Assembly (NCBI RefSeq): GCF_003334815.1
Contig: NZ_QOWO01000035.1
DNA from: Escherichia coli
GTDB lineage: Bacteria > Pseudomonadota > Gammaproteobacteria > Enterobacterales > Enterobacteriaceae
Strand: one strand, 5' to 3'
DNA: 39,681 bases
Part shown: piece by piece, positions 16,554-17,429 of the stretch
Position numbering within the stretch: position 1 is the stretch's first letter
Layout of the letters: each line of letters begins with the position of its first letter
Program-made: the position numbers and the translations under genes
The notes under the pieces: model-generated
What the model saw: the letters and a program-made list of their open reading frames with translations, nothing else
What the model was told of the DNA's origin: nothing
Databases searched by the model: none

Positions 16554-16704
16554 ATTGCGCTCCTGATTGTTGCAGGTAGTGTCTCTCTTCGAAGCGGATA
16601 AGTCAAAAACATATATGACTTAACGAATGTGTAAGTGCAGAGGAAGGTAATAGGTGTGAATTTTGAGTTGGCTATTCATTTGAAAGGAGGTCTGAATCAG
16701 GACG

Positions 16705-16787
16705 TAAAAAAACCGACTTTGCGTCGGTTTTTTACTTTCCAGCCCTGAGTTGGTGGCTCTGGCTGGAGTGAGAGAGTTCTTATCTAA
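16705..16787 (-). ncRNA. agrB: Antisense sRNA of the dinQ type I TA system (copy nearest arsR; I believe this is AgrB)
   Basis: Minus-strand promoter ttgcaa (16823-16818), 17-nt spacer, tagtat (16800-16795); about 85 nt later a terminator hairpin ccgac…gtcgg plus U7. Its body is the complement of the dinQ 5' leader (25 nt identical, 16765-16789 vs 17195-17219). Confidence 0.6.
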
Positions 16788-16935
16788 CAGCTCAATACTA
16801 TTAGCCAGTGGCTAACATTGCAAGAATTAGCGATTTCTTCAGCTGGCGGAGGGAGCACTTCGGTATATATCGCAGTGACGATTTATATACTTTCACTGGG
16901 TCATCGTCATATTAAGCCTTGTCCGAATCCGGATG

Positions 16936-17018
16936 TAAAAAAACCGACTTTGCGTCGGTTTTTTACTTTCCAGCCCTGAGTTGGTGGCTCTGACTGGAGT
17001 GAGATAGCCATCATCTAA
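16936..17018 (-). ncRNA. agrA: Second antisense sRNA paralog (I believe AgrA)
   Basis: Same architecture as the first copy: ttgcaa (17054-17049), 17-nt spacer, tagcat (17031-17026), then the identical terminator hairpin plus U7. Weaker complementarity to dinQ than the first copy. Confidence 0.55.
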
Positions 17019-17081
17019 CGCATCAATGCTAATACCATACTGAAACTATTGCAAGGACGTGCTGGTTTTATAACCTGCATG

Positions 17082-17101
17082 TACTGTATGATTATCCAGT
17101 T
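17082..17101 (+). promoter_or_regulatory. LexA (SOS) box in the dinQ promoter
   Basis: tactgtatgattatccagtt fits the LexA consensus taCTGtatatatataCAGta (CTG-N10-CAG), about 200 nt upstream of the dinQ ORF. Confidence 0.65.
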
Positions 17102-17292
17102 AGCTCTGAGGCATTTTCACTCTGGCAATGCGCATAAACGCTTTCAAAGTCCTGGTCAGAAGTACGGGTGGTGCCGTTAACTGATGCTCTGGCCGGAGTG
17201 AGAGAGTTCTTATCTAACAATGAGACATGCGCCGTGACAGGCACTGGATGAGTAAGCGGATGCATTCTCACTCCATCGCATGGAGAAAACGG

Positions 17293-17376
17293 GTGATTGA
17301 TAAAGCAATCATCGTTCTAGGGGCGTTAATTGCGCTGCTGGAACTGATCCGCTTTCTGCTTCAGCTTCTGAACTGA
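17293..17376 (+). CDS. dinQ: Type I toxin DinQ (27-aa membrane peptide), GTG start
   Basis: gtg att gat aaa … aac tga translates to (M)IDKAIIVLGALIALLELIRFLLQLLN*, matching DinQ as I recall it; RBS ggaga 6 nt upstream; hydrophobic helix. Confidence 0.8.
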   Translation: MIDKAIIVLGALIALLELIRFLLQLLN

Positions 17377-17392
17377 TAGCGGAAACGTAATT

Positions 17393-17423
17393 AAGGGCTA
17401 AGAGCACACTACTCTTAGCCCTT
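17393..17423. terminator. Shared hairpin between convergent dinQ and gor
   Basis: Perfect 11-bp stem aagggctaaga / tcttagccctt with 9-nt loop, placed between the dinQ stop (17376) and gor stop (17430); flanking U-tracts are weak on both strands. Confidence 0.55.
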
Positions 17424-17429
17424 TAACAT

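Follow-up and report, generated by a model that had tools for sequence, protein, structure and literature searches.

What is the repeated DNA that separates arsR from gor in Escherichia coli, which of its copies act on one another, and how did they come to lie side by side? Our analysis of this spacer in a single stretch of 39,681 nucleotides of E. coli DNA (hereafter the window) leaves us confident that it is the known SOS-regulated type I toxin–antitoxin locus dinQ-agrAB, described by Weel-Sneve et al. 2013 (PMC3567139) and Kristiansen et al. 2016 (PMC5066626). A sequence-only reading of the same DNA had named this locus, an identification borne out by two matches to the Rfam AgrB family and by a dinQ ORF identical to the RefSeq-annotated toxin. 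Of 5426 complete E. coli genomes, 5423 carry the locus. Between arsR and gor the window has the same gene set and order as K-12, with an apparent LexA box, terminators and promoters as published for that strain; nothing of substance differs, and the window carries a K-12-like haplotype of the same locus. The core content had already been published between 2013 and 2016, including the label “agrAB repeat” and the remark that the sRNAs were “presumably tandemly duplicated” (PMC3567139), and the sequence-only reading was a correct rediscovery from raw sequence that was partly over-read. The features on which our argument draws are, from left to right:

16200–16553, minus strand: arsR coding sequence, left flank of the spacer (117-aa ORF; RefSeq ArsR in a 99.9% identical locus; tblastn)
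16704–16787, minus strand: agrB sRNA gene, the cognate antitoxin in this haplotype (Rfam RF02891 AgrB, 108.4 bits, model positions 1–84)
16707–16733, no strand assigned: agrB Rho-independent terminator hairpin (inverted-repeat arms; terminator stem in the Rfam consensus structure)
16756–16789, minus strand: 34-nt element copy 1, DNA of the agrB 5′ antisense region (repeat family D2)
16795–16823, minus strand: agrB promoter, −10 TAGTAT at 16795–16800, 17-nt spacer, −35 TTGCAA at 16818–16823 (read from sequence)
16842–16911, minus strand, as is gor itself: gor′ relic, derived from gor 17621–17696 and since decayed (local alignment)
16935–17018, minus strand: agrA sRNA gene, a paralogue whose 5′ specificity core differs (Rfam RF02891 AgrB, 106.2 bits, model positions 1–84)
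16987–17020, minus strand: 34-nt element copy 2, encoding the agrA 5′ region (family D2 repeat; 79% identity to copy 1)
17026–17054, minus strand: agrA promoter, −10 TAGCAT at 17026–17031, −35 TTGCAA at 17049–17054 (read from sequence)
17082–17101, plus strand: apparent LexA operator TACTGTATGATTATCCAGTT, which overlaps the promoter and transcription start of dinQ (read from sequence)
17099–17425, plus strand: dinQ mRNA, to the shared terminator (+1 at about 17099 and +44 processing site at about 17142, from the paper's numbering)
17186–17219, plus strand: 34-nt element copy 3, in the dinQ 5′ UTR, where it is the target of agr (family D2 repeat; 97% identity to the agrB copy)
17265–17285, plus strand: dinQ “sequence 3” at 17265–17276 and “sequence 4” with the Shine-Dalgarno GGAG at 17280–17285 (mapped from PMC5066626)
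17293–17376, plus strand: dinQ ORF, GTG start, 27-aa toxin VIDKAIIVLGALIALLELIRFLLQLLN, then stop (ORF list; RefSeq dinQ CDS in a 99.9% identical locus; tblastn)
17393–17423, no strand assigned: terminator hairpin shared by the convergent genes dinQ and gor (perfect 12-nt inverted repeat; terminator scan match)
17430–18782, minus strand: gor, glutathione reductase (450-aa ORF; RefSeq gorA; homologues found)

The repeats fall into two long copies and one short one. A direct repeat of 114 nt occurs at 16690–16803 and 16921–17034, its copies 88% identical and 231 nt apart from start to start; they share an exact stretch of 58 nt, against at most 17 nt in 500 shuffles, so that the similarity on which the sequence-only reading depended is significant. 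Both copies hold the terminator hairpin AAAAAACCGACTTTGCGTCGGTTTTTT (16707–16733 and 16938–16964), as had been claimed, and the last 34 nt of the block recur a third time at 17186–17219, in the dinQ leader, making the proposed partial third copy real. This third element is 33/34 identical to 16756–16789 and 26/34 identical to 16987–17020. Since the only mismatch to the former is 16764 T versus 17194 C, 16765–16789 equals 17195–17219 exactly, the 25-nt identity that the earlier reading had reported.

The two long copies are sRNA genes. Their scores stand well above the AgrB gathering threshold of 40 bits, both RNAs fit the Rfam consensus structure with no non-canonical pairs flagged, and their minimum-free-energy folds include a stem-loop and a terminator, with a 5′ single strand as well in agrB. 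The agrB hairpin is flanked by an A-run and a T-run and is therefore terminator-like on both strands. The two promoters lie in register (+231), in a region past 17034 where the similarity of agrA and agrB is weak taken alone. A simple consensus scan picked up none of the agr promoters or terminators; the promoters escaped it because 8/12 positions match, which is under its threshold, and the miss does not count against them. Consensus-like −10/−35 elements together with primer-extension starts have been reported (PMC3567139). With 5′ ends at 17018 (agrA) and near 16787 (agrB) and a dinQ start at about 17099 on the opposite strand, the transcripts do not overlap and begin within about 500 nt of one another, the arrangement that T1TAdb (PMC8594479) gives for this family. 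The assignment of both full copies as minus-strand antisense sRNA genes thus agrees with the family model and with published Northern blots and primer extension (PMC3567139).

On the plus strand, we inferred the ends of the dinQ mRNA by placing the segments U16–C28, G94–G106, U167–U178 and A182–G187 of PMC5066626 on the sequence, and all four fall on the stated bases of the window. The fit of TACTGTATGATTATCCAGTT to the LexA box was judged by eye; LexA operators reported at dinQ include this same operator (PMC3567139), and the operator block is conserved in 44 metagenome contigs. “Sequence 2” of dinQ corresponds to 17192–17204, within the agr target, and sequences 3 and 4 form the hairpin that sequesters the ribosome site (PMC5066626). 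The GGAG Shine-Dalgarno at 17282–17285 precedes an ORF, VIDKAIIVLGALIALLELIRFLLQLLN, that is small, hydrophobic and single-transmembrane, as in the DinQ family, and the dinQ terminator has been placed just beyond the gor stop (PMC3567139). Work in K-12 is the source for expression and transcription starts, for repression that depends on agrB and for the toxicity of dinQ expression constructs (PMC3567139), and the structural switch of the mRNA is described in PMC5066626.

The mechanism that we set out is taken from this literature; our own contribution concerns the identity of the parts, the significance of the repeats and the co-variation of pairing across loci. From a LexA-controlled promoter, dinQ would be transcribed on the plus strand from about 17099 and encode a 27-aa inner-membrane toxin, its primary transcript being translationally inert. 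Loss of the first 44 nt would allow sequence 2 (17192–17204) to pair with sequence 3, freeing the Shine-Dalgarno. The ~85-nt agrB (16787 to 16704) and agrA (17018 to 16935) would be made from their own promoters on the opposite strand, on an identical stem-loop/terminator scaffold. The agr 5′ region, about 32 nt and single-stranded, is a direct DNA repeat of 17186–17217, and its RNA is therefore predicted to be antisense to the dinQ leader. Pairing of agrB with the leader, near-perfect here, would sequester sequence 2, so that the Shine-Dalgarno hairpin closes, and the duplex would be cut by RNase III; agrA would be non-cognate in this haplotype.

Pairing of the 34-nt elements is consistent with this division of roles. 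We predict −62.0 kcal/mol for the agrB:target duplex (33/34) and −45.6 kcal/mol for agrA:target (26/34), energies computed from the elements themselves since whole-RNA folding, which gave inflated energies and long loops, was dropped. Six of the differences between agrA and the target, eight over the whole element, lie in or beside a 13-nt variable core. Published K-12 counts are 30/31 for agrB, compared with 33/34 (DNA) here, and 25/31 for agrA, compared with 26/34, the weaker match in both. The published 34-bp agrB:dinQ duplex, spanning G88–A119 (PMC5066626), maps to 17186–17217, which confirms the third copy as the sRNA target. In vitro, agrA left the +44 dinQ structure unchanged and did not inhibit translation (PMC5066626). 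Of the proposal that both sRNAs are antitoxins, the part concerning agrB stands and the part concerning agrA is overstated, in this haplotype.

Across loci, antisense and target change together. When 18 agr copies were set against 10 targets, every target found its best partner at its own locus or in a copy with the same element sequence. Among 15 distinct agr/target pairs the proportion of pairing cells is 94.3%, compared with 83.3% after shuffling and about 38% when the partner is slid, and both sides have changed in 16/34 pairs; none of 500 shuffles reached the observed values. This co-variation covers Escherichia, Citrobacter and plasmid loci. For two-copy loci the better-pairing agr was chosen, which biases the pair counts slightly upward, and because duplication or gene conversion of direct repeats also yields co-variation, we take it as supportive rather than as independent proof. 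Ten of the 44 metagenome contigs, which have a single agrA-type copy, a K-12-type target and the arsR flank, were left out of the counts; as they have no exact match in complete genomes (best 98.5%), we regard them as assembly collapse across the 58-nt exact repeat.

Which position holds the best-matching copy, agrA or agrB, appears, judging from sequence, to alternate from one common haplotype to another. In the haplotype that we call L023-type, the agrA-position copy is the better partner (31/34, −56 kcal/mol) and the K-12-type agrB the poorer one (28/34, −44). This haplotype, exemplified by NZ_CP025916.1, is matched with 100% identity by complete genomes and with 99% or more by 1252 records; the number of complete E. 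coli genomes whose agrA-position copy, not agrB, has the better target match exceeds 1,000. E. coli E69 shows the same pattern, as does O157:H7 less sharply. Exact K-12-type agrB 56-mers occur in 2685 genomes, K-12-type targets in about 1682 (counted at 95% or more identity over the 56-mer) and exact L023-type targets in 1577. At least four alleles of the 13-nt variable core exist in E. coli, and 13 of 21 haplotype differences fall in or right beside two 34-nt elements. We found no account of a strain-to-strain switch of the matching copy in the searchable literature.

These observations lead us to suggest, with confidence evenly poised, that the three 34-nt elements form an evolving specificity system instead of one working antitoxin and a decayed copy. 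The published reading of the paralogues, that agrA is a decaying, non-functional duplicate and that agrB alone matters anywhere, accounts for K-12, where agrA mismatches the target, gives no relief of toxicity (PMC3567139) and is inert towards the +44 transcript in vitro (PMC5066626), and for the poor agrA pairing in the window. It sits less easily with an agrA that scores like agrB on the family model (106 versus 108 bits) and shares with it the 58-nt identical scaffold and an in-register promoter, with the better match of the agrA-position copy in L023-type strains, E69 and, less sharply, O157:H7, and with the excess of genomes having K-12-type agrB over those having K-12-type target; we therefore think this reading improbable, at perhaps one chance in four as a general rule. 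If the specificity-system reading is right, a second antitoxin copy could let the target change partners through gene conversion or recombination while avoiding a lethal intermediate. In a large share of E. coli the K-12 rule that agrB is the antitoxin and agrA degenerate seems to fail, which bears on annotation and on agrA/agrB knock-outs in other strains, and the natural allele series offers a ready-made compensatory-mutation data set for the 34-bp duplex.

How the second copy arose is suggested by the gor′ relic, a datable footprint of the construction of the locus. Its alignment to gor scores 50, against 17.4 ± 2.0 for shuffles, of which 0/300 reach 50, and in four haplotypes it retains 75–81% DNA identity over 72–79 nt, with gor codons recognisable and, in E. 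whittamii, a readable translation. It is single, lies between agrA and agrB and occurs in every two-copy Escherichia locus. The sequence-only reading had put a gor-like segment at the head of every repeat unit; one fragment, 16842–16911, is genuine, but gor-like sequence is absent at the unit starts (16690–16706 and 16921–16937) and in the arsR–agrB spacer (score 14, under the shuffle mean). In E. albertii the relic has the same junction at gor −269 and continues to the gor stop codon, and the sequence past it has no homologue in the window. Loci with a single agr occur on plasmids as well as in E. albertii and Escherichia sp. E1V33. Both dinQ and agr are missing after gor in Citrobacter koseri, C. 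farmeri and C. portucalensis, three species whose DNA downstream of gor is unlike both the E. coli spacer and the E. albertii flank beyond gor′. Beyond the 2013 remark, we found nothing on a gor pseudogene at dinQ, or on the duplication history of the locus, in the searchable literature.

We posit that the basic module consisted of one agr and one dinQ with a common 34-nt repeat, and that the second agr copy probably arose by segmental duplication, most simply of a block comprising the last ~269 nt of gor, dinQ and agr, followed by deletions. The gor′ relic would then be a leftover of this event, and its junction, common with E. albertii, would date the duplication of the gor 3′ end and module before the species split. 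The variable core would have diversified since, leaving either agr copy cognate depending on the strain. Plain tandem duplication does not explain why the junction between the agr unit and its left flank falls on one common base for three unrelated flanks (16690, 16921, and 16919 in E1V33), and the duplication-plus-deletion history is itself not unique. Conversely, a mobile dinQ-agr cassette with its own last ~269 nt of gor could have integrated at the gor 3′ end and displaced gor′, agrB being added by a later local event or arriving with the ars island. Such an insertion would suit a relic that begins at gor −269 in both E. coli and E. albertii and reaches the gor stop in the latter, the sharp common end of the agr unit where three different flanks start, the mobility of dinQ-like modules (on plasmids and within a type IVB conjugation cluster) and the other genes found directly after gor in the dinQ-less Citrobacter species. 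We nonetheless consider it unlikely, if still a serious minority option: the ~0.8-kb unit contains neither an integrase nor an att-like repeat, all gor sequences tested are equally distant from the relic, and the post-gor′ sequence of E. albertii is unlike any Citrobacter gor downstream region. A search for a mosaic, foreign gor 3′ end found no excess divergence in the last 269 nt, where Escherichia–Citrobacter identity is 0.87–0.89 (0.82–0.85 over the first 1084 nt), and for this reason the integration model gained no support.

A familiar precedent is the icd gene, at which e14 and phage 21 integrate, leaving a displaced 3′-end icd pseudogene. There, too, part of the 3′ end of a housekeeping gene is found again, as a direct duplicate, beyond the inserted segment, but the dinQ-agr insert is only about 0.5 kb and lacks an integrase and a recognisable att, gor shows no mosaic signal, and we offer the parallel as an analogy only.

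Segmental duplication of a single module also differs from the history proposed by the sequence-only reading, of three degenerate tandem units of ~230 bp, each made of a gor-3′-like segment, a terminator hairpin and a 31-mer, from whose serial duplication toxin, antitoxins and target all descended. The two copies 231 nt apart with a third 34-mer downstream, the one gor-derived fragment adjoining the agrA hairpin and a faint AgrB-model match over the third copy (22.7 bits, E=1) speak for this model. Against it, Tandem Repeats Finder returned no array (0 rows) on 16400–17800, and the spacings of 231 and 199 nt give no constant period. The third copy is confined to 34 nt, with no hairpin and no stem-loop, the spacer segments outside the 114-nt and 34-nt blocks resemble one another no more than shuffled controls, and the gor-like fragment is missing both beside agrB and in front of the dinQ target. 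The single-agr loci of plasmids and E. albertii indicate a basic module of one agr and one target. Common origin holds for the agr copies, which are duplicates of each other; the toxin ORF has no similarity to, and no repeat in common with, the agr units, and its descent from the same sequence is unsupported for that reason. We judge the three-unit model highly improbable. The remaining reading, of generic REP/BIME-type or chance terminator repeats with no specific function, for which the resemblance of the hairpin to an ordinary bidirectional terminator could be cited, has practically no chance of being right and is refuted by an exact repeat of 58 nt where shuffles give at most 17 nt, by covariance-model matches with E around 1e-19, by the confinement of AgrB matches in the window to the two agr sites and by a co-varying target that always sits in the toxin leader.

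Related modules place the locus within a wider family. The agrB-dqlA/dqlB systems of plasmids and ICEs (pOXA-48 IncL, pOXA-484 IncX3; PMC12365149, PMC12317039) use the same sRNA scaffold, and the Rfam AgrB model scores 40–68 bits on the plasmid locus L004, the Citrobacter loci L006 and L007, and on L009 and L015; an agr scaffold scan of viral contigs gave 0 matches. These modules likewise have a 34-nt repeat common to the agr 5′ end and the toxin leader, and a small hydrophobic toxin with a LELIR motif, and plasmid agrB-dqlB has been validated as a toxin–antitoxin pair (PMC12317039; PMC12365149). They differ in having no gor′ relic, other specificity cores and an ATG instead of a GTG start, and in copy number, with one agr per toxin on the plasmids examined and arrays of 2–3 agr copies at a ~116-nt period in Citrobacter. 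Their role is plasmid stabilisation, in contrast to the chromosomal, SOS-linked dinQ of the window.

A looser likeness extends to tisB/istR-1, zorO/orzO and shoB/ohsC, grouped by architecture in T1TAdb (PMC8594479), in which, as in dinQ/agr, a non-overlapping sRNA upstream of the toxin pairs through a short common repeat. Like tisB, dinQ is an SOS-induced toxin whose primary transcript needs processing before translation (PMC3567139). The sequences and toxins of these three systems are unrelated to dinQ/agr, and the dinQ duplex is far longer (about 32–34 bp); unlike them, dinQ has two sRNA paralogues in most E. coli. As a separate observation, T1TAdb already picks the more stable agr partner.

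The 876-nt spacer between arsR and gor is the dinQ–agrAB type I toxin–antitoxin locus of Weel-Sneve et al. 2013 (PMC3567139), as shown by the AgrB matches and the RefSeq annotation of DinQ. Both sRNA genes match Rfam RF02891 (AgrB; threshold 40 bits) over their full length, and the Rfam scan found no further AgrB match elsewhere in the 39.7-kb window. The ORF at 17293-17376, whose product is VIDKAIIVLGALIALLELIRFLLQLLN, is the DinQ toxin according to the RefSeq annotation of a 99.9% identical locus, and 5423 of the 5426 complete E. coli genomes carry the locus. The sequence-only reading was therefore right about the identity of the locus and the roles of its parts, although these were already published: PMC3567139 reports both sRNAs with their promoters and terminators, gives an antisense region of 31 nt (30/31 in agrB, 25/31 in agrA), uses the label “agrAB repeat” and describes the sRNAs as “tandemly duplicated” and agrA as “partly degenerated”. 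The repeat observation itself is real. A repeat search over 16400-17800, which covers the whole spacer, gave three relevant families, listed here with the genes around them.

arsC and arsB, minus strand
16200-16553, minus strand, arsR
16690-16803 and 16921-17034, direct repeat of 114 nt, 88% identity, start-to-start distance 231 nt
16704-16787, minus strand, agrB, 108.4 bits
16935-17018, minus strand, agrA, 106.2 bits
16756-16789, 16987-17020 (79%) and 17186-17219 (97%), the 34-nt element common to the agrB and agrA 5' regions and the dinQ leader, spacings 231 and 199 nt
16877-16911 versus 17662-17696 in gor, an unexpected 35-nt match
17430-18782, minus strand, gor

Within both long copies lies an exact 58-nt repeat, against a maximum of 17 nt in shuffles of the spacer (n=500). 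Copies 1 and 3 of the 34-nt element differ by a single mismatch (16764 T versus 17194 C), so that the proposed 25-nt identity between 16765-16789 and 17195-17219 is exact. The picture of three degenerate tandem units of ~230 bp fails: Tandem Repeats Finder returned nothing, other spacer segments align no better than shuffles, and the supposed third unit consists of 34 nt only, lacks the hairpin and stem-loop and scores 22.7 bits (E=1) with the AgrB model. Since the dinQ ORF lies outside all repeats, the suggested descent of the toxin from the sequence that gave rise to them is unsupported. A gor-like segment had been placed at the start of each unit; alignment to gor found none there, nor any between arsR and agrB, and instead located one real fragment at 16842-16911.

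This fragment, a decayed gor copy that we term the gor' relic, is flanked by the agrA terminator and the agrB promoter and aligns with gor 17621-17696 in the same orientation, with a score of 50 against 17.4 +/- 2.0 for shuffles (0/300 as high). It occurs in all two-copy Escherichia loci examined (E. coli K-12-like, E69, O157:H7 and E. whittamii) at 75-81% identity to gor, and in E. whittamii it still translates to an 18-residue stretch that can be set against 18 residues of Gor. In E. albertii the relic follows the single agr and is itself followed by a block that matches gor over its final 30 nt, stop codon included. Its junction there is at gor position -269, as in E. coli, and the gor 3' end was therefore duplicated before these two species split. 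The Escherichia sp. E1V33 locus has no gor' relic, and we found no mention of the relic in the searchable literature.

A search for the agr scaffold, in which each species was represented by a single genome and hits were then scored with Rfam, gave two agr copies in E. coli E69 and E. whittamii, one in E. albertii and in E1V33, seven, arrayed, in Citrobacter werkmanii, and single copies on small contigs and one E. coli plasmid. Homology of E1V33 to the window starts at 16919, the repeat edge. In Citrobacter koseri, C. farmeri and C. portucalensis other genes lie within 64-157 nt after gor, with no AgrB match there. The simplest history would be a duplication of a segment that runs from ~269 nt before the end of gor through dinQ to agr, followed by lineage-specific deletions, in which the E. 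coli lineage would have lost dinQ' and most of gor', and the E. albertii lineage dinQ' and the second agr. The main alternative, an icd/e14-like integration bringing a surrogate gor 3' end, gained no support, as divergence from Citrobacter gor is no higher over the final 269 nt of gor than over its remainder, and the DNA after the E. albertii gor' is unlike every Citrobacter gor downstream region compared. Neither duplication nor integration explains a further observation, namely that the agr unit meets three unrelated left flanks (the spacer on the arsR side, the gor' relic and that of E1V33) at a single shared base (window 16690 and 16921; about 10390 in L013, the E1V33 locus; about 4036 in locus L008), an edge that looks like the end of a discrete module. 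The slp-side region lies ~470 nt from agr in E1V33 (L013 8801-9917) versus ~4.2 kb in the window (11321-12434), where the interval includes arsRBC; the ars genes are thus an insertion/deletion difference directly beside the agr end.

For the dinQ mRNA, the numbering of Kristiansen et al. 2016 (PMC5066626) was placed on the window, every position falling on the bases given there.

about 17099, plus strand, dinQ +1
17114-17126, sequence 1
about 17142, processing site +44
17186-17217, agrB duplex G88-A119
17192-17204, sequence 2
17265-17276, sequence 3
17282-17285, Shine-Dalgarno GGAG

In the published mechanism dinQ is repressed by LexA, and its primary transcript is inert because pairing of sequence 1 with sequence 2 leaves sequences 3 and 4 masking the ribosome site; loss of 44 nt allows sequence 2 to pair with sequence 3, opening the site, and agrB binding around sequence 2 re-closes the hairpin, after which RNase III processes the duplex (PMC5066626). 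The computed energies fit this mechanism: -62.0 kcal/mol for the 34-nt duplex of the agrB element with the dinQ leader, with one A.C mismatch, and -45.6 kcal/mol for that of agrA. The mismatch (16764/17194; duplex pair 26-47, alignment A1) is shared, across species, by 11 of the 15 distinct agr/target pairs, which suggests that it is maintained rather than accidental.

The toxin leader repeats the adjoining agr 5' region at every locus. When 18 agr copies were compared with 10 targets, each target paired best with an agr from its own locus or with one whose element sequence is identical. Over 34 intermolecular pairs in the 15 distinct agr/target pairs, taking the better agr copy at two-agr loci, 94.3% of cells are paired, against 83.3% for shuffles and about 38% for slid partners; two-sided changes occur at 16/34 pairs, and 0/500 shuffles reached the observed values. 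Since the two arms repeat each other directly at the DNA level, such co-variation could also stem from gene conversion or duplication; this, and the choice of the better copy, make the result supportive of pairing, not independent proof of it.

Within E. coli, the variable 13-nt core of the element has at least four alleles, and the better-matching sRNA differs between haplotypes. In the K-12-like window it is the agrB-position copy that matches the target (33/34); in the L023-type haplotype it is the agrA-position copy (31/34, -56 kcal/mol), and K-12-type agrB is a poor match (28/34, -44). Complete genomes include exact copies of the L023-type haplotype, and 1252 records have it at >=99% identity; over 876 nt it differs from the window at 21 positions, eight in 17204-17225 and five in 16989-17012. 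Among 5,426 complete genomes, the K-12-type agrB 56-mer is exact in 2685, the K-12-type target 56-mer is >=95% identical (1-2 mismatches) in about 1682, and the L023-type target 56-mer is exact in 1577. Natural variation thus supports agr/dinQ pairing but complicates the agrA/agrB naming. We found no mention of strain-dependent cognate choice in the searchable literature; with the gor' relic, it is of modest interest, for specialists. The window's exact target 56-mer (17195-17250) occurs in 1 of the 5,426 genomes, with 1,681 others 1-2 bases off, so the dinQ leader of the source strain is a rare variant.

Rearranged loci were also seen. E. coli AVS0655 (NZ_CP124498.1; L003 1012-1098) has lost the equivalent of 16790-17185, apparently by recombination between the agr and dinQ-leader 34-nt elements; agrA and gor' are gone, together with the promoters of dinQ and of both agr genes, leaving a promoterless agr/dinQ fusion, and arsR and arsB are missing as well. 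In E. coli SCPM-O-B-8794 (L010, 700-2300) the order is arsC, gor' relic, agrA, dinQ, gor; arsB, arsR and agrB are deleted, and the sole agr, the agrA-position copy, matches its own target at 30/34. Ten metagenome contigs (L018, L019, L022, L033, L038, L039, L051, L052, L054 and L061) carry a single agr, have the arsR flank and show a K-12-type target that does not match, a form with an exact match in no complete genome and the pattern that assembly collapse of the 231-nt repeat over its 58-nt exact core would be expected to give.

In Citrobacter werkmanii BBMW01000020.1 (L006 4744-5797, L007 675-1381), the seven AgrB copies form tight arrays with a period of about 116 nt, adjoining 31-aa DinQ-like ORFs within a type IVB conjugation cluster (DotA/TraY, DotM/IcmP). 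Of the three copies in a row in L007, the toxin-proximal one alone matches the leader, the others having orphan specificities. Single agr plus dinQ-like modules, each with its own matched 34-nt core, occur on the E. coli plasmid p23GD35035_P5 (L004 1465-1899), a 1.3-kb Haemophilus sputorum contig (L009) and a contig binned as Lachnospiraceae (L015); binning errors or mobile elements could account for the latter two labels. Elsewhere in the window, three sRNAs have Rfam matches above threshold, which fits the acid-fitness-island side of this E. coli region.

1308-1421, minus strand, GadY, 150 bits
7200-7271, minus strand, ES205 sRNA, 105 bits
25796-25836, minus strand, ES036/CssrF, 42 bits
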